From NCBI GenBank assembly GCA_965203465.1, contig CBDBCR010000001.1:962306-1026305 (forward strand): a stretch of DNA of 64,000 nucleotides. Direction: 5' to 3'. The notes under the pieces are model-generated. The model was given only the letters and a program-made list of their open reading frames with translations. It made no database searches and was not told the origin of the DNA. Origin of the DNA: Nitrosopumilaceae archaeon. GTDB lineage: Archaea > Thermoproteota > Nitrososphaeria > Nitrososphaerales > Nitrosopumilaceae. Position 1 is the first letter of the stretch, and the number at the start of each line of letters is the position of its first letter. Positions 3,993-62,709 of the stretch are shown here, one piece after another. The position numbers and the translations under genes are program-made.

Positions 3993-6528
3993 ATGAGCCA
4001 CAAGACTCCTCGCACGGGGGGGGGGGGGGCGGAAACCTCGTAAACCTCGTCGGCACAAACCTGCCAAACAAAGTTCTGTAACGGTCGAGCAATACACGCA
4101 CGGCGATCAGAGACCCAATAACCCACCTGTGGGTTTGGTAACGCCTGGCACTGATCCTGACGGCCCGCCAGCCAAATACGAACACGATCCGCGGATCAGC
4201 CCCCATCTGTCGTGGGCGGGCAAACGTGAAACGCCGGGGTTTGAGGTAGATACCGTCTCGTTGCATACACACGAGAGGGTTGATCCGTCTACTATAATAG
4301 AAAAGGCATTTAGATCAGAACCTACATCTGCACAGCGTACGTTGTTTTTTGACCAGCCTGAAAACAACCCGCCGTTGAGAGATGCAGTCGACTTTTACCA
4401 ACACGATCAAAATTGGACGAACAGGCTGATCGCCGGAGATTCGCTTCTTGTGATGAATTCGTTGTTAGAAAAGGAGGGTATGGAGGGTAAGGTTCAAACA
4501 ATATACATAGATCCGCCATATGGAATAAAATATCATTCAAACTTTCAACCGTTTGTTAGCAAAAAGAGCGCCAGGGATGGCAACGACAAAGACATGACAC
4601 AGGAACCAGAAATGATCAAGGCTTTTAGGGATACTTGGAAACTCGGGATTCATTCGTACCTTTCCTATTTGAGAGATCGGTTATTGTTGGCAAAAAAACT
4701 CCTAGCTGACAGTGGGAGTATATTTGTTCAGATATCGATTGAGAACCTACACCACGTTCGAGAGGTTATGGACGAAGTGTTTGGCAACGCCAACTTCTGC
4801 TCTATGATTGTGTTTGCCACTACTACCGGCAAGGGTTCAAAACTACTTGATACTGTAAACGATTTTATTTTGTGGTACGCGAAGGACAAAAAACAAGTCA
4901 AATATAGGCAATTGTACGCCAAAAAAACACTCTCTGACACACAATCCTATGATTTTGTTGAGGATGAAGATGGTGGACGACATGATCTGTCAGATGCCGA
5001 AAAACAGGACATCGCAACCTACAAAAACCTCAAAGTATTTTGCATCGGTGACACAACATCTGCGTCGTCTAGCCCAAGCACTGTTTTTGAATTTGAATTC
5101 GATGGTGAAAAATTCAACCCTAAACCCCCGAGTGGTTGGAAAACAAACCTACAAGGCATGCAAAATCTAGAGCGCAAGAATAGATTGAGAAAAAAGGGCA
5201 GCAAGCTAGGATATGTTAGATTTTGGAGTGATTTTCCTTTTAAGCGTTTAGATCACATGTGGTCTGACACAAGCCTAGGGTTTGCGAAAAAACTATATGT
5301 TGTTCGTACCAGTACCAAAGTAATCAAGCGGTGCATTTTGATGACAACTGATCCTGGCGATCTCGTATTGGATCCCACATGCGGTTCAGGCACAACGGCG
5401 TTCGTGGCAGAAGACTGGGGTAGAAGATGGATCACTTGCGACACGTCTCGGATAGCAATAGCAATTACTCGAAAACGATTGATGACTGCGTTTTACAAAT
5501 ACTACAAGCTAGCATACCCCAACACTGGAGTCTCTGCAGGCTTCATATACAAGCAAGCCAAACACGTCACTCTAGAGTCGGTAGCGCAAGACAAAGAGCC
5601 AGAAATTGAAACTTTGTATGATTGCCCAGATCTAGACAACACGCGACATCGTGTATCTGGTCCGTTTACCGTCGAGGCTGTCCCTTCTCCGACCGCAGTA
5701 TCGATCGATGCTTTGAATCAACAGGTGGATGGAGAACAACAGGGGGACGGCAGTGCTAACGCTACGCGCCAACAAGAGTGGCGTGACAGTCTACTAAGGA
5801 CTGGCATTAGAGGCAAGGGTGGCGATCGAACTCATTTTTTACGCGTCGAGCCACACCCTGTCACAAAACACCTTCACGCTAAGGCTGATACTGGATCCGG
5901 GGATTTGGCGGTAGTCTCTTTCGGCCCAGAGCATGCGCCATTGGAACAGAGACAGGTGGCGCGCGCACTTGAAGAGGCGGAAAGCTTAGTACCCAAGCCA
6001 AAGATCGTAGTGTTTGCAGCAATGCAGTTTGATCCGGAGGCGGCCAAGGACATAGACGAGACTCGATGGCCGGGCGTGCGAATAATGCGAGCTGAAATGA
6101 ACAAGGATCTGCTTACCGCGGATCTCAAAAAAGGCAAGATTAGCGACGACCTATTTTGGCAGGTTGGACGTCCAGATGTAGATCTAGAAACAAGGAACGG
6201 AATGAATGTGGTGACGGTGCGCGGGTTTGATTTCTTTAACGCTGACGGCAAAATTGTCTCGGGAGATGCATCCAACATAGCAATGTGGATGCTCGACGAG
6301 GATTATGACGGACGTAGTATCTATCCGGGGCAGGTGTTCTTTCCTATGCAAGATGGGGGATGGGAAAAGCTGGCCAAGACGCTTAGGACAAAAATTGATC
6401 TAGATCTGATCAAAAAATACGCAGGAACTGAATCCATACCATTCAAGACTCGGGACAACAAGCGAGCAGCCGTCAAGATAATCGATGACAGGGGCATTGA
6501 ATCCGTCAGGATATTAGATCTGGAATGA
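3993..6528 (+). CDS. mod: Type III R-M adenine DNA methyltransferase Mod (frameshifted at the poly-G tract as assembled; uninterrupted ORF is 4129-6528)
   Basis: YIDPPY (motif IV) precedes VLDPTCGSGTT (motif I), the beta-class order. The frame stays open upstream of GTG 4129 (YTHGDQRPNNPPVGLV) back to the G tract. ATGA overlap with res. Confidence 0.9.
4016..4029 (+). repeat. G14 homopolymer in the 5' coding region of the type III mod gene
   Basis: Directly counted 14 G. ATG 3993 reaches TAA 4041-4043 with G14 but is in frame with mod at G13 or G16. Confidence 0.9.
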
Positions 6529-9371
6529 AAGGCATCGGCAATCTTGTTATTTGTGGTCCGTATGATGAGCCTGACAGACACTGGAAGTACGATCGCGTTA
6601 GGCGGGAGTTTGAACTTGTTAAGGAAAGACGTGCGGCTGGGTTTCTCATCGCGTCAAAGAACAGCCAGTCATTTGATGACCCTGGCAGGTTTGTTCCTAT
6701 AGATGCGGTCAACCGCATACGGGATAGAGTGCGGATGTGGAGAAAATCTGGATACCCACACGTTACCGGTATTACCAAGAGTCTGTTGGAGTTTTGGCAC
6801 AACAGTGACATCCGCGAAAACAATCTTTTTTTCTGTCAGCTTGAGGCAATCGAGACGCTGATCTGGATGGTGGAGGTGCCTGAAGCACAACGTCAAGGAC
6901 TTGGACTGGTTCAGGACGGCGGGGAGTTTGAGCGCTTGTGCTGCAAGATGGCGACCGGAACTGGAAAGACTGTCGTTATGGGAATGCTCGTGGCATGGCA
7001 GGTGATCAACAAGGCCACATACCCACAAGATGCTCGGTTCTCGAGGCACATACTTGTCATGGCGCCTGGACTGACTGTCAAATCTAGGCTTCAAGTGTTG
7101 TTACCGGATTCTCCAGACAGCATATACGCGGAGTTTGGCCTCGTGCCGGAATCGTTGTATCAAAAACTCAGAAAAGGCCACGTTGTGGTGCACAACTGGC
7201 ACAAGCTCGTTCCGGAACAGGATACCCCAAAGAGCGTAGTAAAACTAGGAAATGAAAGTCACACCGCGTTTTCTAGAAGAATACTGGAGCATGATTATGA
7301 TCGGATCGTAGTAATAAACGACGAAGCTCACCACGCTTACAGGGCTGGACAGGCCAAGAATGTGTTAAAATCTGAACTCGATCAAGATCGGAAATGGATG
7401 GAAGGCCTTGACCTAATACACAAGGCACGGACTGTAGTGAGATGTTTTGACTTCTCTGCTACTCCGTTTGTTCCATCTGGCAACGCCGCCATCGAATCAG
7501 CGCTATTTGGATGGATAGTTTCGGACTTTTCTCTCAACGATGCTATCGAGTCGGGCCTTACAAAGACACCGAAAATAGTTGTAAAGGACGACGCTAGGCA
7601 GTTTGACGAAGAATATAGATCTCGGTTCTATCACATTTACATGGATCGCGAAGTAAACGCAGACATTAACCGTAAGGCAAAGCCTGAAGAACCGTTGCCA
7701 GACCTTATTCACAATGCGTACATGCTGCTGGGAAAAGACTGGGATCAGCGGCGACGCGTGTGGGAGGAGAACGGTTCGGTAGTGCCGCCGGTCATGATCA
7801 CGGTCTGCAACAGGACGGAGACTGCGGCCAGGATAATGCACTCGTTCCAAAATGGCAAGTTTGAGGTAGGAGGCATGTCGGATCCGGTGCACACAGTGCA
7901 CATCGATACAAACACACTCAAAAAAGCCGAAGGATCTGTAGGCGACAAGGCATCTGAGCGCCTGCGGCGCAAGGTCAACACGGTCGGCAAGCGCGGGGAG
8001 CCGGGAGAGCAGGTTCGCAACGTCGTTGCAGTACAGATGCTCACAGAGGGCTGGGACGCAAAAAACGTCACGCACATAATGGGTCTGCGGGCCTTTGCCA
8101 GCCAGCTCCTCTGCGAGCAGGTGGTCGGGAGGGGGCTACGTAGAACATCGTACGTGGTAGATCCGGCCACGGGCCTGCTGCCTACCGAGCATGTGAACGT
8201 CTTTGGCGTGCCGTTCACGTTCCTTCCGCACGAGGATGGGGGAGACGACGGGCCTCCCCCGCCGCCCACCACCTTGATAGAGCCGGATCCGGCCAAGGCC
8301 GAGCACGAGATCTCGTGGCCCAACGTGGAGAGGATAGATGTGGTCTTTTCACACGTGCTACGGGTGGACTGGAGCCGTGCGCGGCGCTTGGAGCTGAGTA
8401 GCGACAAGACGGCCACCATCGCGAGCTTGGCGCCTGTCATTGCCGGCAAACCTGCTGTCAGCGGCATGTCGGATCTAGATCTCCGTAACCTCTGCACGGA
8501 TCTGAGAATGCAGCGCGTTATGTTCATGACTGCTCGGAACATCTATGATTCCATTGGCGGAGGCTGGACGGGGGGGTCGACATCACTTCTGGCACAGCTA
8601 GTCGTACTGGTAGAAGAGTACATGGCACGAGGGCTGGCATCCGTGCCCGACGCCAAAGGAGATCTTTTGCGGACGCGCATGACGCTGATATTCAACATGA
8701 AGAAGATATCTGCCGAGCTTGAAAGGATCATAAAGACTGACAGCACCGAGAAAAGAGAGATCGTCCTGGGTCAAGTCAAGCATAAATCGACTGCACACAT
8801 GCAGAGGTGGTACACACCAAAGCACGCGATGCACGCATTAAAATGTCACGCCAATCTTGCGGTATACGACTCGTCGTGGGAGGCTGGCGCCGGCGAAGAG
8901 ATGGAGCGCAGCGATTTGGTGATCTCGTGGGCCCGCAACTTCAAGATAGGGTTTGTCATAAAGTACCTGTACCGGGGAGTCACGCACGACTACTATCCGG
9001 ACTTTCTGGTGCGCCTTGCCAACGGCGTGACGCTGATCCTGGAGATCAAGGGACGGGACGACGAGCAGAACCGCCGAAAGAGAGAATCCCTCCAAGAATG
9101 GGTGGACGCAGTCAACGAGACCGGCGCGTACGGCGCGTGGGCTTGCGACGTGGCGTTCAGCCCAGGCGATGTCGGCGCGATCCTCAAAAAACACGCAACC
9201 TCCGACATATCATCAAAAGAACGAGCAAAGTGCCCTCGGTGCCTCAGGACTGCCCTCACCAGGCAGGAGGTCGAAAGCGCGTTTGGGTTCCGCAACGCGG
9301 GCGGGATCGTCAGGCCGCAGTCGTGGTGCCGGGACTGCCGGGCCGGACAGCCTACAGGCAGCGCGGGCTGA
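6525..9371 (+). CDS. res: Type III restriction endonuclease Res subunit (SF2 helicase plus PD-(D/E)xK nuclease) with C-terminal Zn-ribbon
   Basis: MATGTGKT Walker A, DEAHH, SATP, QVVGRGLRR, YYPDF...LEIKG, then C-terminal CPRC...CRDC. Confidence 0.92.
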   Translation: MKGIGNLVICGPYDEPDRHWKYDRVRREFELVKERRAAGFLIASKNSQSFDDPGRFVPIDAVNRIRDRVRMWRKSGYPHVTGITKSLLEFWHNSDIRENNLFFCQLEAIETLIWMVEVPEAQRQGLGLVQDGGEFERLCCKMATGTGKTVVMGMLVAWQVINKATYPQDARFSRHILVMAPGLTVKSRLQVLLPDSPDSIYAEFGLVPESLYQKLRKGHVVVHNWHKLVPEQDTPKSVVKLGNESHTAFSRRILEHDYDRIVVINDEAHHAYRAGQAKNVLKSELDQDRKWMEGLDLIHKARTVVRCFDFSATPFVPSGNAAIESALFGWIVSDFSLNDAIESGLTKTPKIVVKDDARQFDEEYRSRFYHIYMDREVNADINRKAKPEEPLPDLIHNAYMLLGKDWDQRRRVWEENGSVVPPVMITVCNRTETAARIMHSFQNGKFEVGGMSDPVHTVHIDTNTLKKAEGSVGDKASERLRRKVNTVGKRGEPGEQVRNVVAVQMLTEGWDAKNVTHIMGLRAFASQLLCEQVVGRGLRRTSYVVDPATGLLPTEHVNVFGVPFTFLPHEDGGDDGPPPPPTTLIEPDPAKAEHEISWPNVERIDVVFSHVLRVDWSRARRLELSSDKTATIASLAPVIAGKPAVSGMSDLDLRNLCTDLRMQRVMFMTARNIYDSIGGGWTGGSTSLLAQLVVLVEEYMARGLASVPDAKGDLLRTRMTLIFNMKKISAELERIIKTDSTEKREIVLGQVKHKSTAHMQRWYTPKHAMHALKCHANLAVYDSSWEAGAGEEMERSDLVISWARNFKIGFVIKYLYRGVTHDYYPDFLVRLANGVTLILEIKGRDDEQNRRKRESLQEWVDAVNETGAYGAWACDVAFSPGDVGAILKKHATSDISSKERAKCPRCLRTALTRQEVESAFGFRNAGGIVRPQSWCRDCRAGQPTGSAG

Positions 9372-9490
9372 CTGGCCGGTTTCGAGTAGCCCGGAACGGC
9401 CGCCTGCGAGGCGCGGGGTCTATTTATTATGACCAAGCATCCAACAATACTGACACGCGGGCGGTTATACCCTTTTGGCGATGCCCGTCC

Positions 9491-10234: not shown

Positions 10235-10308
10235 GGCGCGGTTTCTCCATTTTTTCGCAGCCACCGCGGGGGCGATACCGTTTTTTATGGCGCGCCGCCA
10301 CGCCTCCC

Positions 10309-13178: not shown

Positions 13179-13250
13179 GCTTGGCGCCCGGCCCCGCCGT
13201 ATTTGTTGCTACCCCACAGCTAATATAGAGCGCGCCGGGGGGCGCGGGCC

Positions 13251-15253: not shown

Positions 15254-15278
15254 ATACGAGTGCCCGGGAGGGGGGGCC

Positions 15279-15446
15279 GTGCCGATAACGGATCCGGAAA
15301 AGAAGCGCATAGCGCAGCAGGCGCGACTGCACATGCGCATATGCTTCAACTGCGGGGCGCGCAACGACATATCGGCCACGCGCTGCCGCAAGTGCAAAAA
15401 CCCCCACCTGCGCCTCAAGAACAGGACGCTGGGCGCCAAAAAGTAA
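15279..15446 (+). CDS. rpl40e: 50S ribosomal protein L40e
   Basis: Manual translation: MPITDPEKKRIAQQARLHMRICFNCGARNDISATRCRKCKNPHLRLKNRTLGAKK. Confidence 0.92.
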   Translation: MPITDPEKKRIAQQARLHMRICFNCGARNDISATRCRKCKNPHLRLKNRTLGAKK

Positions 15447-15478
15447 GGTACAAAAGGCATCGCCCGGCCCGCTACGCC

Positions 15479-15573
15479 GGACCGGTCGTCTAGCCTGGTT
15501 TGGATGACGCACTCACACTGCGTAAGGGGCCCTGCCCCCGCAAAGGTCGCGGGTTCGAATCCCACCCGGTCCA
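15479..15573 (+). tRNA. tRNA-Val(CAC) with 20-nt non-canonical intron (15525-15544, position 44/45)
   Basis: Acceptor GGACCGG/CCGGTCC-A, anticodon arm ACGCA-CTCACAC-TGCGT, TTCGAAT T-loop, and a complete bulge-helix-bulge around the insert. Confidence 0.88.
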
Positions 15574-46834: not shown

Positions 46835-46867
46835 GCCTGCGGGAGGCGGGCGCGTCCAATTAAACCG

Positions 46868-47872: not shown

Positions 47873-48076
47873 GCGGCGCGGGCCCTTTGTGCGTGTTAAA
47901 ACGTTTGGCATGGTGCCTGCCGGCGACATCGGACGCCCTCCGGCGCGGCCGCGCCGGGGCGATCCAAAGCGTGCTGTACCGCGGACTTTCCGGACGGCTT
48001 TAGGCGGGCGGCAATCGGGCGCCGCCAGAAGGGCAAGTATAATTACGACTGTTCGCGTTCCACGCCGTGATAAAGC

Positions 48077-51000
48077 ATGAACCGCGGGGGGGGGGGGGGT
48101 AGCAACAGGCCGGACTGCCGGGGCGCCGCAAACCCGCGCAAGCTCGATCCGTTGCGCTTGGCCCTGCTTTTGCTGCCTTTATTGTGCGCGCCGTCCGCGC
48201 TGGACGCGCACGCGGACAGCATACTCGTGCTGAACCAGCAGTCGTACCCGGAGGTCGGCGGCCCGTGGACCGTGCGGTTCGTGACCTGGGGCGCGCACGA
48301 CCTGGCAGTATCGGGAGCCGAAGGCACCACGGTAGGCGCGGGCGGCGACGTCTCGTTCGTGGGACTGCGCGACGGGGCGGGGCGGCACGTGGAGCCAGCG
48401 CACGACGGCGGCCGGCTGGTCTTTGCCGGCTACGAGGGCGGCGGCACGTCCGAGCTGACCGTGCGCGTGAACACGCCTGGCCCCCACGCGCTGCTGCTGG
48501 GTTTTGGGGGGGACGAGGCGCTGGCGCGCAACAACGCGTATCCGCGCCAGGTTACGGAGATCGCCGCGTCTGCAGGAGGCGAGCCGTTCCTGAAGGGACT
48601 TGACAATTTCGGCAGATCCGTCGCCAGAATCGGGGATCTGGACGGGGACGGCACGGCGGACTTGGCCGTGGGGACATGGGGGCGGGATCCGGCAGTCCAC
48701 ATACTGCTTCTTACTTCCACCGGCACGACAAAGCAGGCTACCAGGATAGACTCTTCGACTCCGAACGGACCGCAGCTCGCAACAACCGACAGTTTCGGCG
48801 TATCGCTTGCGGCCGTCGGGGATCTGGACGGGGACGGAACGCCTGATCTGGCGGTGGGGGCGAACGGAACCGACAGAGTCAGGGGAGCCGTCCACCTGCT
48901 GTACCTGAACTCGGACGGCACCGTGAAGAACACAGTCGAGATAAACGACTCCACGGCCAACGGCCCGCAGCTTGCACGAAACGACAATTTCGGCGTATCG
49001 CTTGCGGCCGTCGGGGATCTGGACGGGGACGGCAACATGGACTTGGCCGTGGGGGCTGGCGGAGACGACGGGAACAAGGGCGCCGTCCACCTACTGCTCC
49101 TCAACTCTACGGGGACGGTGAGGCAGACCGCAGAGATCAACGCCTCCACCCCGAACGGGCCGTCGCTGGGCGTGAACACGCGCTTTGGCTCCTCGCTTGC
49201 CGCCATGGGGGATCTGGACGGGGACGGGGTGGGAGACATGGCGGGAACCGTAGACGGCACCGCCATCTCCGTGCTGTTCCTCAACTCGGACGGCACCGTA
49301 AAGCGCACTACTGGGCTGCCTGTCACGTCCGTCGGCAGCCCGTCCCTCGCCGCCGTCGGGGATCTGGACGGGGACGGCATGACGGAGCTTGCCATTGGGG
49401 CTACGGGGGACGACACGGGCGGGACGAACGCGGGCGCAGCCTACCTGTCGTTCCTCAGTTCGGATCTCGGCATAAAGAGAACCGTCAAGATCGACGCCTC
49501 CACCGAAAACGGGCCCCAGCTTGAGGCGGGGGACCGTTTCAGCTGGTCCCTCGCCGCCGTGGGGGATCTGGACGGGGACGGCACGGCCGACTTGGCCGTG
49601 GGGGCCGTCGGAGACGACGGGAGATCTGCGGGTACGGGCGCCGTCCACCTGCTGTTCCTCAACTCGGACGGCACCGTAAAGCGAACAGCTCAGATAGACG
49701 GATCGCATCCGTACGATCTGTCTCTGGCGCGGGACGACAACTTCGGCTCCTCCCTCGCCGCCGTCGGGGATCTTGACGGTGACGGCACGGCCGACTTGGC
49801 CGTGGGGGCCGCCGGAGACGACGCGGGCGGGACGAACGCGGGCGCCGTCCACCTGATGTACTATTCGGACGGCACGGTAAGACAGACCGCCAAGATCGAC
49901 GGCTCTACGGCCAACGGGCCCCAACTCGCAGCAAACGACGAGTTCGGCTCCTCCCTCGCCGCCCTTGGGGATCTGGAACGAGACGGCACGGCGGACTTGG
50001 CCGTGGGCGCGCCCGGAGACGGCGGCGGCAAGGGCGCCGTCCACCTGCTGCTCCTCACCTCCACCGGCACGGTAAGACAGACCGTCACGATCGACGACTC
50101 TACAGCAAACGGGCCCCAACTCGCAGCAAACGACGGGTTCGGCTCCTCCCTCGCCGCCGTCGGGGATCTGGACAGGGACGGCAACATGGACCTGGCCGTG
50201 GGGGCCGCCGGAGACGACGGGAACAAGGGCGCCGTCCACCTGCTGTACCTCAACTCGGACAGCACCGTAAAGAACGCCGTCGAGATAAACGGCTCCACGG
50301 CCAACGGGCCCCAGCTTGCGGCAAACGACAACTTCGGCTCCTCCCTCGCCGCCGTCGGGGATCTGAACCGCGACGGGACGCCGGATCTCGCCGTGGGGGC
50401 CGCCGGAGACGGCGGAAACAAGGGCGCCGTCCACCTGCTGCTCCTCACCTCCACCGGCACGGTAAGACAGACCGTCACGATCGACGACTCTACAGCAAAC
50501 GGGCCCCAACTCGCAGCAAACGACGGGTTCGGCTCCTCCCTCGCCGCCGTCGGGGATCTGGACAGGGACGGCAACATGGACTTGGCCGTGGGATCGGCCT
50601 TTGACGACGCGGCAGCGGACGACGCAGGCGCCGTACACGTGATGCTTCTCACATCCACCGGCACCGTGAAACAGACCTCGGAGATCAACGCTTCTACGCC
50701 AAACGGCCCGCGGCTTGCAGCAGGCGACCGCTTCGGCTCCTCCCTCGCCGCCGTCGGGGATCTTGACCGAGACGGGACGGCGGACTTGGCGGTGGGCGCG
50801 CCCTTTGACGACGCGGGGGCGCCGAACGCAGGCGTCGTCCACATCGTCAGACTCGGGGCGACCGCTCCGTCGTGGGACGGCACCATGAGTTCCTTTGCGG
50901 AACTGGGCGGTTTGAAACTGCTCGACGACGACCGCTTCGGCTCCTCCCTCGCATCCGTCGATCTTGACGGGGACGGGATCAAAGACCTGGCTGTGGGGGC

Positions 51001-54000
51001 TATCAACGAATCCGTGGGAACAGAAACTACGGGCGCCGTCCACCTGCTGTTCATGAACGCAGACGGCACCGTAAAGCGCACCGTCGAGATAAACGGCTCC
51101 ACGGCCAACGGCCCGCAGCTTACGGAATACGACAATTTCGGCTCCTCCCTAGCCGCCGTCGATCTTGACGGGGACGGGACGCCGGATCTGGCAGTCGGCG
51201 CAACCGACGACGATGCGGGAGGGACAAACAAGGGCGCCGTCCACCTGCTGTTCATGAATTCGGACGGCACCGTAAAGAACACCGTCGAGATAAACGGCTC
51301 CACGGCCAACGGCCCGCAGCTTACGGAATACGACAATTTCGGCTCCTCCCTCGCCGCCGTCGGGGATCTGGACGGGGACGGGACGCCGGAGCTCGCCGCG
51401 GGGGCCATCTTCGACACCAGCGACATTCTTAGCGAAGGCGCCGTACACGTGATGTTCATGAATTCGGACGGCACCGTAAAGAGCACCGCAGAGATCAACT
51501 CCACCAACGGCCCGCAGATAGGGCTGTCCGACCATTTCGGCTCCTCCCTCGCCGCCGTGGGGGATCTGAACCGAGACGGAACGCCGGACTTGGCCGCGGG
51601 GGCGTACTTTACGTACGACGAGATCAGGAACGAGAACATTGGCGCCGTCCACGTGATGCTCCTCTCCTCCACCGGCACGGTGAAACAGAGCACAAAGATC
51701 GACGCATCCACCCCGAACGGGCCGTCGCTGGCAAACGGTGACTTGTTCGGCTCCTCCCTCGCCGCCGTGGGGGATCTCGACGGGGACGGCACGGTAGATC
51801 TGGCGACGGGGGCGTCGGGCAACGCCAGAGGCGCCGTCCACGTGATGCTCCTCACCTCCACAGGCACGGTGAAACAGAGCACAACGATCGACGCATCCAC
51901 CCCGAACGGGCCGTCGCTGGCAAACGGCTACTATTTCGGCTCCTCCCTCGCCGCCGTAGGGGATCTGGACGGGGACGGCACGGCAGACTTGGCCGTGGGG
52001 GCAGACGGATCCAACACACAAGGCGAGTCAGTTGCAGGCGCAGTACACTTGCTGCTCCTCACCTCCACCGGCACGGTAAAACAGAGCACGGAGATTGAAG
52101 CCTCGAATATAGGAAGGCAGCCGCCAGTAGCGCGGGGCGATCTATTCGGCTCTTCCCTCGCCGCCGTGGGAGACATCGACCGCGACGGTGTTGTGGACAT
52201 GGCCGTCGGCGCGCCCGGAGACGACGAGGGGGCGATAAACTCAGGCGCAGTACACTTGCTGCTCCTCACCTCCACCGGCACGGTGAAACAGAGCACCAAG
52301 ATCGACGCCTCCACCCCGAACGGGCCGTCTCTGACATACGGCTACTATTTCGGCGCCTCCCTCGCCGCTTTGGGGGATCTGGACGGGGACGGCACGGCCG
52401 ATTTGGCCGCCGGAGCGCCCGGAGACGACAGCGGCAAGGGAGCTGTCCACCTGCTGTTCATGAATTCGGACGGCACCGTAAAGCGCACCGCCACGATAGA
52501 CTCCTCTACCGCCAACGGACCGCAGCTTGCAGCAGGCGACCGCTTCGGCTCCTCCCTCGCCGCCGTGGGGGATCTCGACCGCGACGGAACCGCAGACCTG
52601 GCAGTGGGGGCTACTGGACGCCACGGCGCCGTCCACCTGCTGTTCATGAACGCAGACGGCACCGTAAAGCGCACCGCCAAGATAGAATCTCCGACTGACC
52701 ACGCACCGCAGCTTGTACTTTCCGACCGCTTCGGCTCCTCCCTCGCCGCCGTAGGGGATCTCGACCGCAACGGCACGGCAGACTTGGCCGTCGGCGCTCC
52801 TAGAACAACTACGGGGCAACAATACATGGGCGATGTGGTATCTTACAGTGCGGGCGCCGTCCACCTGCTGTACCTGAATTCGGACGGCACAGTAAAGAGC
52901 ACCGCCCGGATCTCCGACTCGGCTATCACCGGATTGCGGTTGGAACAAAACTACCTGTTCGGCTCCTCTGTGAGCGCCGCGGGTGACCTGGACAGGAACG
53001 GCGTGCCGGATCTCGTGGTGGGCGCGCCGGGCGCAGGTTCCGCGGGTTCGGCGTACGTGGTCCTCTTGAACACCGGCAGGTTGGTCAAAGACACGTATGT
53101 CGTGGACGGGACGGCCTTGCAGGGGATCGGGCTTGGTGCCTCGTTCGGCAGCGCGGTGGCGGGCGTGTGGGATCTGGACGGCAACGGGGCAGCCGAGATC
53201 GCGGTCGGCGCGTCCGGACACAACAGCAGGGGAACCGTCCGCATAATGTCCGAATTCAGGCCCGCGTTCGTCACGGGTGTCGGCTCTCCGAACGCCGACG
53301 GCACGTACGGCCAGGGCAGCCCCATCAACATCGACGTGGAGTTTTCCGAGCCGGTCCACGTGACCGGCGCGCCCGCGCTGCTGCTGGAGACGGGCGTCAC
53401 CGACAGGCGCGCCGCGTACGTCTCGGGATCGGGGACCGGCACGCTGAGATTCCGGTACGTGGTGCAGTACGGCGACTCGTCTCCGGATCTGCGGTACGTC
53501 GGACAGTCGTCCCTTTTGCCGATGGGGGGCGCCATAGGGGCATCCAACAAGACGACGGTGCTCGGCCTTCCCGTGCCGGGAATGCCCCAGTCGCTCTCGT
53601 TTGCAAAGAACCTGCACATAGACGGGATACGGCCCGTGCTGGAAGGCGCGTCGCCGCGCCTGCAGCTCGCCTTGGGGGTGCTGATGCTGGACTTTGACAA
53701 GCCGATCGACGTATCCGCGCTGGACGCGGGCGGCATCACCATCCGCGGCCCGTCTTACTCCACGCAGCTGACAGGGGCCACGATCCAGGGCTCGGACACC
53801 GACAGGCCCGTGCTGCGGCTCACGTCGGCTCAGGCCAGCGCCCTCAGGCAGGCCAGCGGCCCGCTGACCGTCACCATATCGGGCAGCGCGTTTGCGGACA
53901 CTGCCGGCAACTATTTTGCGGGCACGGCCGACGCGCAACTGAACGTGCAGACGACGCTGGTCTCGTCAGTCTCTTCTGCAGACGACGTCGTGTTATCCGA

Positions 54001-55423: not shown

Positions 55424-55450
55424 AGGCCCTCGGCGGCGCGGCCGCGCCGG

Positions 55451-56704
55451 TTGGCGCCGGTAGCGTACGTGCTCTTGGACGGGGTGGGCGATCTTGCGCA
55501 CCCCGACCTCGGGGGCCGCACCCCGCTGGAGGCCGCCTCGACGCCGGCGCTCGATTCCCTCGCGCGCGCCGGCGCGCAGGGGCGCGTGGTCTCGGTCGGC
55601 GAGGGCATCGCCCCCGAATCGGACATCGCCGTGTTCAACATGCTGGGGTACAGCTTTGAAGGGCGCACGTACCCGGGCCGCGGCGTAATAGAGGCGCTCG
55701 GGCTCGGCATGGACTTTGAGGACGGCGACTTGGCGCTGCGCGGCAACCTGGCCACGCTGGCGGCCGACGGCACCATATCGGACAGGCGCGCGGGCAGGCG
55801 CGTGTCCGCCGGCGAGGCCGAGCGGGTGGCCCGCGAGCTGTCCGGGATCGAGCTTTCGGCGCCGGGCGCCTCGGTGCTGGTCGCGCCCGCCGTCGGGCAC
55901 AGGGTGGCGGTGAGGATACGCGCGCCGGGCGGCCTCTCCGGCGGCATAACCAACACGGATCCGGCCTACGCGAGCGTGGGCGGCATGGGCGTGGCCCTCG
56001 AGGGCGCCGGGCCCCTGAGGGTGCTCGAGTCGCGCCCGCAAGGCCCGGACGGCAAGGCGGCCGCGGATCTGGTCAACGAGTTCAGCAGAAAGGCAGTCGA
56101 GACGCTGTCGCGCAGCGGCGTAAACGAGGCGCGCCGCGCGCGCTCCGAGCCCGAGATCGGGTGCGTGCTGCTGCGCGACGCGGGGAACGCAAAGCCGGAC
56201 GTGGAGCCCATACGCAGCCGGCACTCTGCAAGCTTTGCCTCTGTAGTCGACATGCCCGTCGAGGTCGGGATCGCCGGCGTGCTCGGGATGGACGCCCTCG
56301 AGGCGGGCGGGCCGTCCGACTACGGCGCCAAGGCTTCGGCAGCGGCCTCTGCGCTGGAAGACCACGACGCCGTGTACGTCCACCTAAAGGGGCCCGACGA
56401 GTACGGCCACGACGGCGACGCGGGGGGCAAGGCGCGCAGCATCGAGGAGATCGACTCGCGGTTCTTCGCGCCGCTGCTAGAAAAGATCGGAGGGCGCGCG
56501 GCGTTCGTCGTCTCTGCCGACCATTCCACGCCGTGCATCAAAAAGGCGCACACCGACGATCCGGTCCCGCTGCTCGTATCGGGCGGCGGGGCGCCGGCCG
56601 ACGGCACCTCGCGCATGACCGAATCCGAGGCGCTCTCCGGATCGCTCGGGCTGCTTGCCGGCGCCCGGGTGCTCGACGAGGCGATGCGGCTCACTAGACG
56701 CTGA
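55451..56704 (+). CDS. apgM: 2,3-bisphosphoglycerate-independent phosphoglycerate mutase (archaeal)
   Basis: LLDGVGD, TPLEAA, PESD, HLKGPDEYGHDG, ADHSTP, HTDDPVP. Confidence 0.92.
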   Translation: MAPVAYVLLDGVGDLAHPDLGGRTPLEAASTPALDSLARAGAQGRVVSVGEGIAPESDIAVFNMLGYSFEGRTYPGRGVIEALGLGMDFEDGDLALRGNLATLAADGTISDRRAGRRVSAGEAERVARELSGIELSAPGASVLVAPAVGHRVAVRIRAPGGLSGGITNTDPAYASVGGMGVALEGAGPLRVLESRPQGPDGKAAADLVNEFSRKAVETLSRSGVNEARRARSEPEIGCVLLRDAGNAKPDVEPIRSRHSASFASVVDMPVEVGIAGVLGMDALEAGGPSDYGAKASAAASALEDHDAVYVHLKGPDEYGHDGDAGGKARSIEEIDSRFFAPLLEKIGGRAAFVVSADHSTPCIKKAHTDDPVPLLVSGGGAPADGTSRMTESEALSGSLGLLAGARVLDEAMRLTRR

Positions 56705-57245
56705 ACCGCTCCAGCCTGCCCGACGACCTCATAGAATCTATGTTGCCGCGCACCGCGTCTATGTCGATGCCGTGGTACGCGCCGCTCCACCCGCCGATCT
56801 TTTCGCGCGCGCGCGCCAGCATCGCCACGCCGATGGGCGCGTCGTTTTTCTGCGCGTGCGCGAACGAGACTGCCAGCAGTATGAGGCCCTGCACCAGCAG
56901 CTTTTCGCGCCCCTCGCACTGCTTCCAGACGCCCTCCCATGCCTCGTGCGCCTCCCAGTACCTTTCGCTGTTGTAGTAAAAGATCCCCTCCTGCATGCCC
57001 TCGTCCTTGGAGACCTCCTTTTCGTCCACGCAGCGCGCATCGCGCATGGCCCCTATCCCGGACAGGGCAGCCGAGGCGGCCTCCAGGTCGTCGGTAGAGA
57101 CATCCAGCTCGACGAAATCGGAGGCCACGCGGCAGACGCGCACCGACGCGCGCTCCCCGCACAGCCTGCGGGCCCTGTGGACTAGGTGGCGCGAATCCTG
57201 GGGCGCGTACCTAGAGTTTTCCAAGTGGATCATGTACCTGGGCAT
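56694..57245 (-). CDS. DUF309 domain protein
   Basis: YWEAHEAWEGVW, QGLILLA. ATG 57245. Confidence 0.85.
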   Translation of the reverse strand: MPRYMIHLENSRYAPQDSRHLVHRARRLCGERASVRVCRVASDFVELDVSTDDLEAASAALSGIGAMRDARCVDEKEVSKDEGMQEGIFYYNSERYWEAHEAWEGVWKQCEGREKLLVQGLILLAVSFAHAQKNDAPIGVAMLARAREKIGGWSGAYHGIDIDAVRGNIDSMRSSGRLERFSV

Positions 57246-57382
57246 GCGAGCCCGCACCGCGGCCCTTTTCTTAAACCTGCGCTCGGGGTTTTGCCGAAGC
57301 GGAAATGGCGCGCCGCCGGATCTGCCCGGACGCGGGCCGCATTCAATCAAGGTTTATATCCGCTGGCCGGGCCGGCGCGTGC

Positions 57383-57805
57383 GTGTCTGGCGTAGAAGTG
57401 CTTGCGGACGTAGACAACGCCTTCCTCATGCGGCGCGAGCTTACGTGCAGGTTCGCCGGCGCGGGCGACGCGCTCAGAAAGCTCGACGCGGCCCGGCTGG
57501 TCTCTGAAAAACTGGGGCTGGCCGGCAAGACGGTGGTGCCCGTGTCCATGGGCACGCAGGTGGGCATGCCGTCCAGGACGGGGACGTTTTACGTCTACGA
57601 CGACGAAAAGCTGGCGTACAAGCAGGTGGACCCGTCGGTGATGGCCCGCCTGGACAGGGCCAGAAAGGCGGAGGCCGAAAAGGCGCAGGCTCCGGCAAAA
57701 GACGGGGAGCAGCAGGCCCCCGCCGAGGCGAAAGCGGAAGGCGCCCCGGCAGAGGCCGGCTCGGAGGATCAATCCGCGGCAGAGGACGCCGAAAAGGGTG
57801 AGTGA
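57383..57805 (+). CDS. rps24e: 30S ribosomal protein S24e
   Basis: [18 protein letters not shown], upstream of S27ae, TTTATA about 28 nt upstream. Confidence 0.82.
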
Positions 57806-57974
57806 GTTGGGCAAGAAAGGCCACAGCCCGAAGGTCTACGGGTACTTTGACGTAAAGGACGGCAAGGCCTCGCGCAACCACAACATCTGCTCGCGCTGCG
57901 GCAAGGGCGTCTTTATGGCGCAACACAAGGACAGGCGCTCCTGCGGCAGGTGCGGCCTGACCGAGTTCCTCTAG
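57798..57974 (+). CDS. rps27ae: 30S ribosomal protein S27ae
   Basis: Manual translation: ...[28 protein letters not shown]. Confidence 0.92.
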
Positions 57975-58669
57975 TATATCTGGCGGCGCCGCATCCTCTG
58001 GCTCTTTTGCTCGATCTCTTTTATCCGGCGCGCGGTATTTTCGTCCAGCCTCATCTTCGACATGGCGCCGGCCGGTATCCTCGCTGTGTTGGAGTCCAGG
58101 CTCACCGCGGTGCGCGGCAGGCCGCGGTCCAGCCAAAGCTTTTCCACCTTTTTTTCCAGCCGCGCGTCCCTGAACCCCTCGGGGAACCTCTTTGTGATGT
58201 GGTCCACCAGCGTCCTGTCCGAAAAGACGGCCCTCGGCTCGAGCAGGCGCCCCCTGTCGGCAAACGAGCTCTCGAAGAGGCTGCCGGTGATCTCGTCGGA
58301 GACTATCTCCATGCGCGAGGCCCTGCTGGCAAGCTCCAGGTAGTGGAGGAACTCGTGCGCCAGCACGGCGTGCACCGTGCCCTTCAGCCCGTAGGCCACC
58401 AGCGGCGCCGAGATCTGCACCAGCACCACGACCGAATCCCCGTGCACCACTGGGATCGTGCGCGCGAACAGTATCCCGTACCCGAACTCGGACGGGGCCA
58501 GCATAGCCGACGGCTCCACGTACGCGGGGGGGAACTGGATCCCCGACGCCTTTTCTATGCGATCTATGCCGGCCACGGCCAGCGCGAACCTCCCTTCGAT
58601 CAGGCCGTGCGTCCTTTCCGGGACGTCGCCGCGCTCGTGAGCCTCTCGGGCCTTTGAGAGCGGATCCAT
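57971..58669 (-). CDS. Hypothetical protein with HExxH motif
   Basis: [10 protein letters not shown], host-like codon usage. Confidence 0.78.
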
Positions 58670-58708
58670 GCGGGGCGCCGCGCAGGCGCCCTCGTAAAAT
58701 GTCTTGGG

Positions 58709-58801
58709 CTATCTGCGCGGCTTGCCGGACTTTGACTTTTTGGCGCGCCTGCGCTTTTCTCGCTGATCGGCCCAGCGCTCGTGCTTGCCGCGTTTCCTCA
58801 T
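58709..58801 (-). CDS. 30-aa highly basic small protein
   Basis: MRKRGKHERWADQREKRRRAKKSKSGKPRR, with AATTAA about 27-32 nt upstream of the ATG. Confidence 0.55.
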   Translation of the reverse strand: MRKRGKHERWADQREKRRRAKKSKSGKPRR

Positions 58802-58896
58802 GGGGCGGGGCGCGGGGGCGCGGCTAGTTAATTGTTGCCCCCCTGCCCGCGCCCCGGGGCCGCTGCTTTTTTATCCGGGCATCGGGCGCCGGGCCC

Positions 58897-59001
58897 GTGA
58901 ACAAGAGGTACGTCATAGTCGGGGCGGTGCTCGGGATAATCCTGGCCGCCGCGTTCTTTGCGGGCTCGCCCATGTTCGGCGGCCTGGACGGGTCGCGCTA
59001 G
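58897..59001 (+). CDS. 34-aa single-TM small protein
   Basis: MNKRYVIVGAVLGIILAAAFFAGSPMFGGLDGSR, with TTTTTAT about 25 nt upstream of the GTG. Confidence 0.55.
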   Translation: MNKRYVIVGAVLGIILAAAFFAGSPMFGGLDGSR

Positions 59002-60071
59002 AGCAGGCCGGCCCTGCGCGCCGCGCGCCTGACCGCGTCGGCGCACTCGCCCACCTGGTCTTTGGAGAGCCACGCGGTCACCGATATGCGTATCCGGGCC
59101 CTGCCGCGCGGCACCGTCGGGTGCCTTATCGGCGGCGCGAACACGCCCTGTCTTTCTAGCATGGCCGACATGCGCGCGGCCTCGCGCTCGCCGCCGACCA
59201 CGACCGGTATGATGTGGCTGCTCGAGCCGGCGAGGCCCCCCAGCTCGCGCGCCATGTACCTAGAGTTGTCGGCCAGCCTGGCCTGGTACGGCCCCCTGTC
59301 CGACCCCATGCGCCCGAGCGCGTGGAGTGCGAGCGAGGACGGGAGGGCCGTGGTGTATATGAAGGCCCTCGAAGAATCCACGCAGGTGCGGGCCGCCTCT
59401 GCGCCCATCGCGGCGTACCCGCCGAACGAGCCGAGCGCCTTGCTCAGCGATCCGGTGTGGACCCCGACCCTTTTGGAAACCTTTTGCAGGCTGGCGCTGC
59501 CCCTGCCGCCCCTGCCCACCGCAAAGTCGCCGTGCGCGTCGTCGAGGACCAGCGTGGCGCCGGCCTTTTCGGATTCCTCCGCCAGCTCCGCGAGCGGCGC
59601 CGAATCGCCGTCCATGCTAAAGACCCCCTCGGTGACGACGAATATCCTGCCGCGCGCGCCCCTGGCCGCGCGCGCCGCGGAGCCGGCGTCGTTGTGGGAG
59701 TACACGCGCACGCGCGCCCCCGACAGCCTGCACGCGTCGATGATGCTGGCGTGGTTTAGCTCGTCGCTCAGCACCGTGTCGCCATTGCCGGCCAGCGCGG
59801 CTATGGCGCCGAGGTTGGCCGCGTACCCGGTCGGGAACAGCAGGGCCTTTTGCGAGGAGCGGTGGCGGGCCAGCCTCCTTTCCAGATCAGAGTGCGCCGG
59901 ATCGCTGCCCGAGAGCAGGCGCGAGCTGGACTGCATCTGCGAGTCGGGCACCGGCGTGGGCGGCATGCCGAGGTAGTCGTTTGAGCACAGGTTTATCATG
60001 CGCCTCTTGCCGATCGTGATGTAGGCGCCCTCGACGGTGCCGGGGCGGAGGCGCCGGCGCGCCGGGCTCAT
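58998..60071 (-). CDS. bioF: 8-amino-7-oxononanoate synthase
   Basis: NLCSNDYLG, SDELNHASIID, EGVFSMDGD, DDAH, SLSKALG. ATG 60071. Confidence 0.92.
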   Translation of the reverse strand: MSPARRRLRPGTVEGAYITIGKRRMINLCSNDYLGMPPTPVPDSQMQSSSRLLSGSDPAHSDLERRLARHRSSQKALLFPTGYAANLGAIAALAGNGDTVLSDELNHASIIDACRLSGARVRVYSHNDAGSAARAARGARGRIFVVTEGVFSMDGDSAPLAELAEESEKAGATLVLDDAHGDFAVGRGGRGSASLQKVSKRVGVHTGSLSKALGSFGGYAAMGAEAARTCVDSSRAFIYTTALPSSLALHALGRMGSDRGPYQARLADNSRYMARELGGLAGSSSHIIPVVVGGEREAARMSAMLERQGVFAPPIRHPTVPRGRARIRISVTAWLSKDQVGECADAVRRAARRAGLL

Positions 60072-61042
60072 GCGCGCCCGGCGCCGGGCGTCCTGCCCAT
60101 CTGCTCGAGCATCTCCATGTCCTGGGACGCCTCGTTGCCGCCCATTGTAAGGTACCCCGAGGTTATGATGCCGTTGGCGCCGGCCTCGAGCAGCGCCCGG
60201 CCCGAGTCGCCGGTGGCAGTCTCGCGCCCGCCGGAGATCTTTATTATCGAGCGGGGCAGGGCCAGCCTCAGGACGGCAAAGACGCGCAGCGCCTCGCCGG
60301 GGGGGAGGGGCGGCTGCATCTCCAGCGGCGTGCCCGGGACCGGCACGAGCATGTTGACGGTGACCTCTTCGGGCTCGAGGGCGGCTATCTCGACTGCCAG
60401 CTCGAGCCTCTGGCGGCGCGTCTCGCCCAGGCCTATTATCCCGCCGGTGCACAGCTCCAGGCCTGCCCCGCGCGCGGCCAGCAGCGTGTCTATCCGGTCC
60501 TGGTACGAGTGGGTGGTGCAGATCTCGGCGAACTTTGAGCGCGCCGTCTCCAGGTTGTGGTTGTACCTCTTTACGCCGGCCGACTTTAGCGCGCGCGCCT
60601 CGGCCCCGTCCAGGAAGCCCAGGCTGCACTCCACCTCGATGCCGACCTCGGAGCGTATGCGGCGCGCCACGCCGCAGACTTTTTCGAGCTCGCCGGGCGG
60701 CGGCCTCCTCCAAGCGGCCACCAGGCAGTACGAGCCTGCGCCCTGCTCCTTGGCGCGCCGGGCCGCGTCGACTATCCGGTCGGCGGGGGGCAGCCGGTAC
60801 GTCTCTGTGCCGGTGTCGTACAGGGCCGATTGGGCGCAGAACGTGCAGTCCTCGCTGCACGCGTTCTTTTTGATGTTGTGCAGCTGCTCCACGTCGACGC
60901 CCGAGCCCCACACGGCCCTGGTCACGCGGCCGGCCGCGCGGGCCAGCTCCGCCTCGTCCGGATGGTACATCAGCTCTTCCATCTGTCCGGGGCCGGCGCC
61001 CCTGCCGGCAGCGGCCTCGCTGGCGCACGCCTCGAGCGTCAT
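60068..61042 (-). CDS. bioB: Biotin synthase
   Basis: CSEDCTFC radical SAM motif, YNHNLET, CTGGIIGLGE. Confidence 0.94.
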   Translation of the reverse strand: MTLEACASEAAAGRGAGPGQMEELMYHPDEAELARAAGRVTRAVWGSGVDVEQLHNIKKNACSEDCTFCAQSALYDTGTETYRLPPADRIVDAARRAKEQGAGSYCLVAAWRRPPPGELEKVCGVARRIRSEVGIEVECSLGFLDGAEARALKSAGVKRYNHNLETARSKFAEICTTHSYQDRIDTLLAARGAGLELCTGGIIGLGETRRQRLELAVEIAALEPEEVTVNMLVPVPGTPLEMQPPLPPGEALRVFAVLRLALPRSIIKISGGRETATGDSGRALLEAGANGIITSGYLTMGGNEASQDMEMLEQMGRTPGAGRA

Positions 61043-61057
61043 GGGGCCGGCGCCGCC

Positions 61058-62311
61058 TCACCCCGACTTAATTCTTGCCCGGGCCACGTCGCGCACCGTC
61101 CGCAGGGCGCGCTCCAGCATCATGTCCAGCTCGGCCCTGCCCACGGCCAGCGGCGGCACGAGCAGGACCGTATCGCCCAGCGTCCTCAGGTATATGCCGC
61201 GCCGCCTGCCGGCCAGGTACACCTGCCTGTTGGCAGAGACGCCGCCGCGGCCCGGCGCGAGATCGACTGCCAGCACCATCCCGGCCTGCCTCGCGCCCAG
61301 CACGCCGTCCGCCAGGAATTCGGGGGCCGCTGAGGCCATGGCCCTTGCCGACCTGGCCACGCGCCCGAGCAGGCGGCGCCTGGCGTACAGCTGCAGGTTC
61401 TTGTCGGCGCACGCGGCGGCCACGGGGTTGCCCGTGTACGTGTGGCCGTGGAACAGGTGCCTCTTGGAGCCGTAGCTTCCGAGGAACGACCTGTACACCC
61501 TGCCGCTGGCCAGCGTGGCGGCCATCGGCAGGTACCCCCCGGTCAGCGACTTGCCGTACACGGCGATGTCGGGCGCGCCGCCCAGGCCCTGGTAGCAGGC
61601 CATGCCGCCCATCCTGCCGAGGCCCGAGGCCACCTCGTCCAAGACGAGCAGCGCCCCGGCCTTTCTGCATATGCGGCGCACGGCGCTCTGGAACCCGCGC
61701 GGGTACGCGCGCGCGCCGCCGGCCATCTGTATGCCGCTCTCCATCAGCAGAACGGATGCGTCATTTGAGGCCGCCTCGACGGCCGCGAGCGACTCTTGGA
61801 CAGAAGAGTCCGCGGGCGCCGGCAGCCGCTTCACCGGTATGCGGTGCCCCGCAAAGCTGGAAAAAAAGTCCGAGTACCCCGCCGACATGGCGCCGAACGT
61901 GTCGCCGTGGTACCCGCCGGTGAGCGAGGCCACCGTTATTTTGCCGCGCCGGCCCTCGTTGCGCCAGTACTGTATGGCCATCTTTAGGCCTATCTCGACC
62001 GCCGCCGAGCCGCTCTCCGAGAACGAGACGGACCGCATGCCGGGCAGCGCGCCGACCAGGCGCGAGGCGAGGCGCTCGGCGGGCCCGTGCGTGAGGTTGA
62101 ACAGCGGGGAGTGTTGCAGGACTTTGGCCTGCCTGCATATCGCTTTTACCAGCTCCGGCTCGCCGTGCCCCCAGACGTTGCACCACATCGAGGCCACCCC
62201 GTCGAGCATCTTCCTGCCGCGCGAGTCGTACAGCCACATGCCCCTGCCGCGCACGATGCGGTCGAACCGGGGCCACTCGGACATCTGCGTGTTGGGGTGC
62301 CAGACCTTCAC
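61058..62311 (-). CDS. bioA: Adenosylmethionine-8-amino-7-oxononanoate aminotransferase
   Basis: VWHPNTQM, SMWCNVWGH, YHGDTFGAMS, DEVASGLGR, GKSLTGGYLP, HGHTYTGNP. GTG 62311. Confidence 0.93.
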   Translation of the reverse strand: MKVWHPNTQMSEWPRFDRIVRGRGMWLYDSRGRKMLDGVASMWCNVWGHGEPELVKAICRQAKVLQHSPLFNLTHGPAERLASRLVGALPGMRSVSFSESGSAAVEIGLKMAIQYWRNEGRRGKITVASLTGGYHGDTFGAMSAGYSDFFSSFAGHRIPVKRLPAPADSSVQESLAAVEAASNDASVLLMESGIQMAGGARAYPRGFQSAVRRICRKAGALLVLDEVASGLGRMGGMACYQGLGGAPDIAVYGKSLTGGYLPMAATLASGRVYRSFLGSYGSKRHLFHGHTYTGNPVAAACADKNLQLYARRRLLGRVARSARAMASAAPEFLADGVLGARQAGMVLAVDLAPGRGGVSANRQVYLAGRRRGIYLRTLGDTVLLVPPLAVGRAELDMMLERALRTVRDVARARIKSG

Positions 62312-62695
62312 GCGGGCGCGCGCGCCCGCGCGCAATAAAAACGGGCCTCCGGCGATGCGCGTGATCACAAAAGCGTCCCGATCCGGCACGAAAAGCGCCC
62401 GCCTGCATGAATCTCGGCGGATGGCGGCGCGCGCGCCGGCCTCGGCCGCTTCGGGGATCCGGCGCCCGGCCGCGCTCTCGCCCTTTCCGGCCTGCCGCGC
62501 CCGGCGACTGGATTCCGCGCGAATCCGCGGCCGGCAAAACGGGATTCGCGCGGGGATCTGATGGCCCACCTGCGGGACCGGCCTTGTTCGACAATTCCGC
62601 GATCCGTGCCTGAGCGGCCGTTTTTCGGCCGATCAGTCCGCGCAGGCACGAAAATACGAACTGCGCAAGCCGCCGAATCGCTATGCTCTTATACC

Positions 62696-62709
62696 GGGGG
62701 GGGGGGGGG
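62696..62709 (+). repeat. G14 homopolymer at the 5' end of the second surface-protein gene
   Basis: Counted 14 G, lying between TTATA (62689-62693) and TTG 62717, downstream of an out-of-frame ATG 62683. Confidence 0.9.

Follow-up and report, generated by a model that had tools for sequence, protein, structure and literature searches.

Why do three runs of exactly 14 guanines stand at the beginnings of a DNA methylase gene and two surface protein genes in a 64,000-nt stretch of archaeal DNA, where no other homopolymer exceeds 7 nt? The stretch (positions 962,306 to 1,026,305 of contig CBDBCR010000001.1, assembly GCA_965203465.1; below, the window) belongs to an ammonia-oxidising Nitrosopumilaceae archaeon found in sponge samples. 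Sequencing runs that contain it come from 6 studies and are labelled as sponge metagenome, marine metagenome or coded organisms. A first-pass annotation, made from the letters of the window, took the three runs for part of a genome-wide slipped-strand phase-variation system. According to the data obtained here, the probability is roughly 70% that they belong to a set of about 50 hypermutable poly-G contingency loci dispersed over the genome of this sponge-associated archaeon. This reading is supported by tract numbers far above expectation, by the sites that tracts occupy and the kinds of gene they mark, by length differences between and within samples, and by a genome in which neither MutS nor MutL was found; from these observations we infer the switching itself.

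All three runs lie on the + strand (Table 1) and are the sole G/C runs of at least 9 nt in the window, so that the claim of their being its only long homopolymers was borne out. The window contains 18 matches to G9, a number reached in 0 of 100 dinucleotide-preserving shuffles (mean 1.87). The expected vicinity to start codons with G on the coding strand was also found: the first G of tract 1 is 23 nt past the A of ATG 3993, that of tract 2 is 9 nt past ATG 48077 and 19 nt past GTG 48067, while tract 3 begins 13 nt past ATG 62683 and ends 7 nt ahead of TTG 62717. For this last tract the position beside a start codon stands, but a location within codons is less likely than one in the spacer between TATA box and start. 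None of the three marks a housekeeping gene, just as anticipated; their genes encode an N6_N4_Mtase methylase followed by a ResIII-type subunit, an FG-GAP protein and a PKD/beta-helix protein. The suspicion that the common length of 14 reflects a ceiling of consensus building or polishing had to be abandoned, as long runs of the genome span 9–18 nt and tracts 2 and 3 are read with 11–13 G in other sequencing runs. An Rfam search revealed no known RNA family at any tract site, and its only match in the window was a tRNA.

The assembled genome (2.26 Mb in four contigs, here C1 to C4, with 63–67% GC, about 65% overall, and 96.9% completeness) contains 52 G/C runs of 9–18 nt, while only about 2.6 are expected by extrapolation from the decay of shorter runs. 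Run counts drop approximately four- to nine-fold with each additional base up to the length of 8 (20 G/C runs) and then rise to a second mode at 11–16 nt; A/T runs of at least 9 nt number only 7. On the G strand 31 out of 52 tracts have, within 200 nt 3′ of them, a called gene or open frame that is 300 codons or longer. Association with gene size was estimated on 1564 genes obtained with our own crude codon-usage gene caller. A same-strand tract at −250 to +60 relative to the start was registered for 9 of 11 genes of at least 2500 aa and for 5 of 16 genes of 1500–2500 aa, while in successively smaller classes the fractions were 1/31, 3/119, 4/489 and, below 300 aa, 6/898. A tenth giant, with 3327 codons open from its tract, fell outside this count owing to its start call. 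The genome scan proposed in the first-pass annotation thus gave the enrichment at gene 5′ ends that it was expected to give.

Families of tagged genes were assigned by Pfam and NCBIfam models on the first 1000 residues, or fewer, of 30 proteins. They include three FG-GAP proteins, four beta-helix or PKD proteins and seven giants of up to 9057 aa with Ig-like, CopC, EPTP or LVIVD domains; two N6_N4 methylases have 5′ tracts and a third has an internal one; DndB (TIGR03233, above the cut-off) and a ParB-like protein complete the list, and for twelve of the 30 there was no Pfam match in the residues searched. A signal-peptide-like hydrophobic segment opens 17 of the 24 long frames that continue from a tract, and the other seven include the methylases, DndB and the ParB-like protein. 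The predicted targets, adhesion and defence, are therefore those observed, that is surface proteins with signal peptides together with genes for DNA modification and restriction.

Several peculiarities of this set deserve mention in their own right. Tract-bearing giants of 818 to about 4800 aa at C1:505630, C2:85243, C2:92781, C3:193317, C3:442058 and C4:5436 have a common N-terminal region after the signal peptide; within their first 1000 residues Pfam found no domain in five of them and only a weak CopC match in C3:442058. In two giant paralogues, of 7439 aa (C1:648150-648480) and 6134 aa (C3:421842), the tract (G15 and G13, respectively) is contained in a short upstream open reading frame (ORF), which stops with a TAG lying 3 nt ahead of the giant's own TTG. 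Such an arrangement resembles termination-reinitiation coupling governed by tract phase, and in the 7439-aa gene a leaderless upstream ORF with a G9 run precedes the tract-holding one. At C1:348613 an internal G10 stands between a called gene of 1863 aa and 832 further codons open in another frame, which may together represent a single gene of about 2700 aa interrupted by the tract. A stop codon follows the run directly in 5 of 52 tracts of this genome and in 9 of 39 tracts of a congener (G003 below), with about 5% expected, so that in some cases the tract may form the 3′ end of a small ORF. An IS66-family element (DDE_Tnp_IS66), present in two copies of about 1.8 kb (C1:311888-313702 and C1:810737-812555) and two partial ones (C1:689350-689460 and C3:87230-87804), ends in a G12-13 run, which lies on the strand opposite to the transposase and approximately 160 nt ahead of its start; four tracts are so placed, and this transposase may also be under tract control.

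To read the placement of tracts, transcription starts and start codons were predicted with a matrix built on the genome's own promoters, which may err by one base. Upstream of 711 called starts the A+T content peaks at −30 to −23, while the region from −22 to −1 is GC-rich (24–27% A+T). TATA boxes have their centre 26.5 nt ahead of the start codon, position −1 is C, and among 368 genes with the box at that position start codons are GTG in 187 cases, ATG in 114 and TTG in 67. Since the predicted transcription start lies within 2 nt of the start codon in 390 of 584 genes with a strong TATA box, the genome appears to be mostly leaderless. Against this background a strong TATA box ending 1–14 nt upstream was registered for 13 of 52 tracts in G orientation versus 2 of 52 in C orientation, 50 of 1106 runs of G6-7 and 254 of 20000 random sites (1.3%). 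At these TATA-adjacent tracts the predicted transcription start falls within −4 to +8 of the tract 3′ end. Where the start codon is fixed by a signal peptide, the distance from TATA box to start is 21–23 nt in five loci and 19 nt in one, which has G11; the paralogue of this latter locus has G15 and exactly 22 nt. Such a pair, one member with canonical spacing and the other 3 nt short, is only suggestive of length-dependent expression.

Tract 3 is an example of spacer placement. Its layout (TATA box, 1 nt, G14, 7 nt, TTG) gives 22 nt, the canonical spacing of the genome, and at G14 the predicted transcription start falls exactly on TTG 62717, where a protein with a signal-peptide-like N-terminus begins. 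A paralogue at C3:97762 with 76% DNA identity likewise has a 5′ tract. The same arrangement, a repeat between promoter and start, is clearest in a relative (G001), where a TATA box scoring 12.8 is followed by G13, 9 nt and the GTG at which the UDPG_MGDP_dh_N domain of a sugar dehydrogenase starts at residue 1, the spacing again being exactly 22 nt. A coding model for tract 3, with ATG 62683 in frame at 13 or 16 G, was considered and left as a minor alternative, since its promoter scores 4.6 versus 8.9. DNA searches for orthologues of the genes behind tracts 2 and 3 in other species gave only paralogues from the same genome and weak matches to the upstream gene.

Tracts 1 and 2 are of the coding type. 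Upstream of mod the predicted transcription start coincides with ATG 3961 of an 11-codon mini-ORF, which is probably coupled translationally to ATG 3993. The latter is in the methylase frame only at n = 13 or 16, while at G14 its frame ends with TAA 4078-4080 after 29 codons and the methylase frame itself is open for 832 codons beyond the tract. As in phasevarions, the repeat is located inside the mod frame, the N6_N4_Mtase frame being open through it. Between mod and res there is an overlap of 4 nt. The res product has a ResIII domain and corresponds to the equivalog NF046055 (BPTD_3080), while PRK15483, the model for Type III Res, gave only 18 bits on it against a cut-off of 564. Homologues of mod from other genera have 5′ tracts of G13, C11 (in two genomes) and C26, one copy at a contig end has C31 plus C22, and three further homologues are free of tracts. 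The mod-res pair resides in an island of 47–50% GC (window 4001-8000) within a genome of 65% GC, which suggests recent horizontal acquisition, yet the pair carries a G14 tract already.

At tract 2 two candidate start codons precede the run. ATG 48077 is in frame with the FG-GAP gene at G14, while the frame of the leaderless GTG 48067 joins it at n = 13 or 16, and a signal-peptide-like segment is situated 3′ of the tract in the FG-GAP frame. Protein could therefore be made in two of the three phases, via one start or the other. The GC-rich C-terminal part of the same gene contains another repeat, 3.7 tandem copies of a 12-nt unit at window 54494-54558, whose copy number differs among samples by −12 nt in sequencing run X9 and −24 nt in run X4, both in frame.

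Table 1. Coordinates of the three poly-G loci and their genes in the 64,000-nt window
Feature	Position	Strand	Basis and remarks
TATA box of mod promoter, TTATAATT	3930..3937	+	own-promoter matrix score 13.0; predicted transcription start 3960/3961
Leaderless mini-ORF, 11 codons	3961..3996	+	ATG 3961 to TGA 3994-3996; stop overlaps ATG 3993 (ATGA)
Tract 1, G14, first codons of mod frame	4016..4029	+	sequence
DNA methylase (mod) open frame	3997..6528	+	stop-to-stop; PF01555 N6_N4_Mtase, 112.5 bits
Restriction subunit (res)	6525..9371	+	PF04851 ResIII; NF046055 BPTD_3080-family restriction endonuclease, 948 bits vs cut-off 800
TATA box of FG-GAP promoter, TATAATTA	48038..48045	+	matrix score 11.7; predicted transcription start 48067/48068
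Frame of leaderless GTG 48067	48067..48102	+	at G14 ends TAG 48100-48102 directly 3′ of tract
Tract 2, G14	48086..48099	+	sequence
FG-GAP surface protein, 2448 aa	48077..55423	+	PF01839 FG-GAP, 22 stretches, 518 bits
TATA box, TCTTATAC, one base 5′ of tract 3	62687..62694	+	matrix score 8.9
Tract 3, G14, probable TATA-to-start spacer	62696..62709	+	sequence, matrix scan
PKD/beta-helix surface protein, TTG start	62717..64000, runs past window end	+	PF22352, PF13229

Other features of the window agree with an archaeal origin. Its SecY has a Sec61 plug domain and shares 82–93% identity with SecY records from Nitrosopumilaceae, Nitrosopumilus, Nitrosarchaeum and Cenarchaeum, and both tRNA genes, at 96 and 99 nt, are long enough to suggest introns.

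If the tracts are hypermutable, their lengths should differ where the flanks do not. This was estimated on assembled contigs from four sequencing runs of four studies (X1, X3, X4 and X9; sequencing technology unrecorded) for window positions 47001-64000, which include tracts 2 and 3. Tract 2 has G13 in an 800-nt contig of X3 that is otherwise identical and in one contig of X4, while contigs of X1 stop inside it. Tract 3 has G13 in a 10-kb contig of X1 and G12 in a 2.8-kb contig of X3, both with no substitutions, and G12 in X9; in X4 it is represented by three contigs with G11, G12 and G13, whose depths of 26, 19 and 13 sum approximately to the local depth. Over these 17 kb there are 11 indel rows, four of them at tracts 2 and 3, which account for all indels of X1 (1/1) and X3 (2/2). 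A difference of 2 nt with identical flanks and three lengths within one run are harder to dismiss as technical. The suggested comparison across samples thus gave variation both between and within them at the level of contigs. Metagenome scans in which a gap of variable length was allowed between the flanks returned 0 matches for tract 1 and 0 for tract 3.

The genome was also searched for systems that could correct slippage. No MutS_V and no MutL domain was found in it at 96.9% completeness, and its only NucS_C match lies at the C-terminal end of a protein of 470 aa in which Pfam recognised nothing else, quite different from canonical NucS of about 250 aa with both NucS_N and NucS_C. The check on mismatch repair that the first-pass annotation had proposed came out in favour of its reading. 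NucS is not known to repair indel loops. Canonical NucS was rejected as an explanation for the tracts, because the match is atypical and because presence of NucS_C (in 4 of 25 family genomes searched, with no match in 21) does not track tract counts across relatives. The protein itself (C1:332922-333236) has an N-terminal portion of 360 aa without known family, is encoded about 4 kb from the second tract-bearing methylase and may be a defence nuclease rather than a repair enzyme.

Tracts of at least 11 nt are present in all five genomes of the genus, this one included (45, 7, 10, 39 and 9), and in five further genera of the family with 2–14 each, while none was found in 16 genomes from other families of the order. 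In G001 they accompany a methylase (5′, in frame), a Type ISP enzyme, an MmeI-like enzyme and the sugar dehydrogenase mentioned above. A strand rule emerged from the same data. In the genome under study (G000) G is on the + strand in 19 of 20 tracts of C1, 4 of 4 of C2 and 3 of 4 of C4, while C is on + in 23 of 24 tracts of C3. Overall gene orientation is approximately 50:50, and genes of at least 1000 aa are biased (16 of 21 on + in C1, 25 of 29 on − in C3). GC skew gave no usable replication signal, and direction of replication was taken from the position of Cdc6. In G000 it lies at 114 kb of C1, and the sole C run of this contig is located to its left. In contig C2 of the congener G003 tract strand flips between 636 kb and 924 kb, with Cdc6 at 901 kb, and flips again near 2.24–2.6 Mb, so that 38 of 39 tracts fit G on the strand running with the fork. 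Since the rule holds for tracts with no gene behind them, gene orientation alone is not sufficient to account for it.

The proposed mechanism is simple. Replication slippage would alter tract length, and with no MutS/MutL present the resulting loops would escape correction. In the coding placement, as in mod and the FG-GAP gene, a change by one base would shift the start codon into or out of frame with an intact long frame. In the spacer placement, as at tract 3, the run fills the 22 nt between TATA box and start of a leaderless gene, and its length would set the position of transcription start relative to the start codon. Changes in tract length would then switch expression, probably in a reversible manner, and cells may gain from varying their surface proteins and DNA-modification systems. 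Features by which contingency loci are recognised are found together here, namely repeat excess, placement in 5′-coding or core-promoter regions, length polymorphism with constant flanks, and surface or restriction-modification targets.

The alternative that deserves most attention considers the tracts as unselected by-products of mutation, arising from lack of loop repair or from strand-biased polymerase errors, with frameshifted genes on their way to pseudogenes. The lack of detectable MutS/MutL fits it well, as do the nearly constant strand of G within each replichore, also for tracts not followed by a gene, and the tracts that terminate IS66 elements; the coding-type tracts are mostly out of frame, as would be expected for decay too. 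Yet behind out-of-frame tracts frames of 2438, 1361, 832, 736, 661 and 355 codons are unbroken, and neither the tagging of 9 of the 11 giants nor the 13 of 52 tracts beside a TATA box looks like random placement. Besides, most family genomes searched have no tract of at least 11 nt, although 21 of 25 also have no NucS_C match (MutS and MutL were checked in this genome only). Taken together, this makes an origin as mere by-products unlikely. The tracts might also be static elements whose length is irrelevant, for instance a G-rich promoter or 5′UTR element, a G-quadruplex on the non-template strand or a poly-glycine linker before the signal peptide. The generally GC-rich interval from −22 to −1 and the invariable location of G on the sense strand of associated genes are in line with this, and a quadruplex could form from runs of at least 15 G. 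Most tracts fall short of that length, however, their lengths differ between samples with identical flanks and between paralogues (G11 versus G15, G13 versus G15), and changes by other than multiples of 3 break the frame in coding tracts, so that a purely static role seems quite improbable.

One can also assume that slippage of RNA polymerase or ribosomal frameshifting yields some full-length protein at every DNA length, so that DNA switching becomes irrelevant. Elsewhere long homopolymers do make transcription slip, and tract 2 is preceded by two start codons in different frames. Such slippage is best documented on A/U runs, however, and the length differences were observed in DNA, which leaves little room for this explanation. 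Finally, homopolymer length is the weakest point of all sequencing platforms, and tract 3 is read as G13 in X1, a run of the source sample, versus G14 in the assembly. That the runs are artefacts of sequencing or assembly is nevertheless hardly credible, as contigs of three further studies span the same sites with 11–13 G, comparable sites carry such runs in 10 genomes, and the runs obey promoter and frame logic.

Contingency loci remain, therefore, the preferred reading, and several observations weigh against it. In G003 an open frame of at least 270 codons was found on the G strand behind only 4 of 39 tracts and an adjacent TATA box at one or two of them, while several tracts share an unrelated repeat; the layout with TATA box, tract and giant gene is thus not general, and an attempt to extend it to this congener failed. 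In G000 itself about 21 of 52 tracts are away from the 5′ ends of long genes, at IS66 ends or in intragenic and intergenic positions. Several spacer-type loci have the start codon 9–35 nt or more downstream of the predicted transcription start, too far for a leaderless switch to account for them. Library PCR and consensus calling are both prone to errors in long homopolymers, and therefore differences of 1 nt and part of the mixture in X4 could be technical. All ON/OFF calls hinge on an assembly correct to one base.

It is well known that Campylobacter jejuni and Helicobacter pylori have dozens of G/C runs in 5′ coding or promoter regions of surface-structure and restriction-modification genes, with lengths polymorphic within populations; to our knowledge, they have no functional repair of MutS/MutL type. 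The archaeal set resembles theirs in the large number of runs in a small genome, their 5′ placement, surface and restriction-modification targets, variable lengths and a genome in which MutS and MutL were not found. It differs in the archaeal host with 65% GC, TATA-box promoters and mostly leaderless mRNAs, in longer runs (mode 11–16 versus roughly 8–13), in having giant secreted proteins of 2000–9000 aa as the main targets, and in a G strand that follows replication direction almost without exception. The mod-res locus with its 5′ tract in mod beside res is a candidate switch similar to phasevarions formed by Type III mod genes of Haemophilus, Neisseria and Helicobacter, but it belongs to an archaeon, and its res is of the BPTD_3080 family instead of the classical Type III Res equivalog. 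Repeats in bacterial promoters, such as poly-G/C of porA and opc in Neisseria, TA repeats of hif in Haemophilus and poly-C of fim in Bordetella, offer a parallel to tract 3: the repeat is located between core promoter elements, and its length tunes expression with the protein untouched, which here would be expected from the layout. Unlike the bacterial repeats, which change the spacing of −35 and −10 elements, the archaeal tract stands between TATA box and leaderless start, and its length would shift the 5′ end of mRNA. In Mycobacterium tuberculosis, which also has no MutS/MutL, homopolymer frameshifts, for instance in glpK, are reversible, and the runs are few and short (about 7 nt). The common feature is homopolymer indels without MutS/MutL correction, while a distinct population of long runs concentrated at gene starts sets the archaeon apart.

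Repeat-based phase variation is treated as a bacterial trait, mostly of pathogens. Our literature searches on archaea and ammonia oxidisers found no description of a genome-wide poly-G phase-variation system, nor did they find a precedent for a repeat switch in the spacer between TATA box and start. A survey of 18 archaeal genomes published in 2010 describes, in the part bearing on such repeats, poly(A)/poly(T) runs of at most about 9 nt (PMC2831843); a survey of archaeal restriction-modification names phase-variable systems, in its matching passages, only for bacteria (PMC10609329); and a 2025 review mentions archaea, in the passage concerned, only as future work (PMC11868660). Compared with the known bacterial systems, novelty lies in the archaeal host, the size of the repertoire, targets that are giant proteins, the placement between TATA box and start and the replication-strand rule.

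Put together, these features allow a tentative and broader interpretation, which we hold somewhat short of even odds. Symbiotic ammonia-oxidising archaea may practise multi-locus bet-hedging with an archaea-specific poly-G switch between TATA box and start that moves the mRNA 5′ end on and off the start codon, and the tie of the G strand to replication may point to a previously undescribed mechanism of strand-specific slippage or selection. From the practical point of view, giant genes of metagenome-assembled genomes appear frameshifted or truncated on account of such tracts, at which assemblies also break. If the interpretation is true, a repertoire of about 50 tracts would bring a second domain of life, and a mutualistic or commensal lifestyle, within the range of phase variation, and it would offer a testable link among archaeal promoter geometry, leaderless translation and stochastic gene switching. 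Symbionts without MutS/MutL could in this case vary their giant adhesin-like proteins and restriction-modification systems under pressure from the host and viruses.

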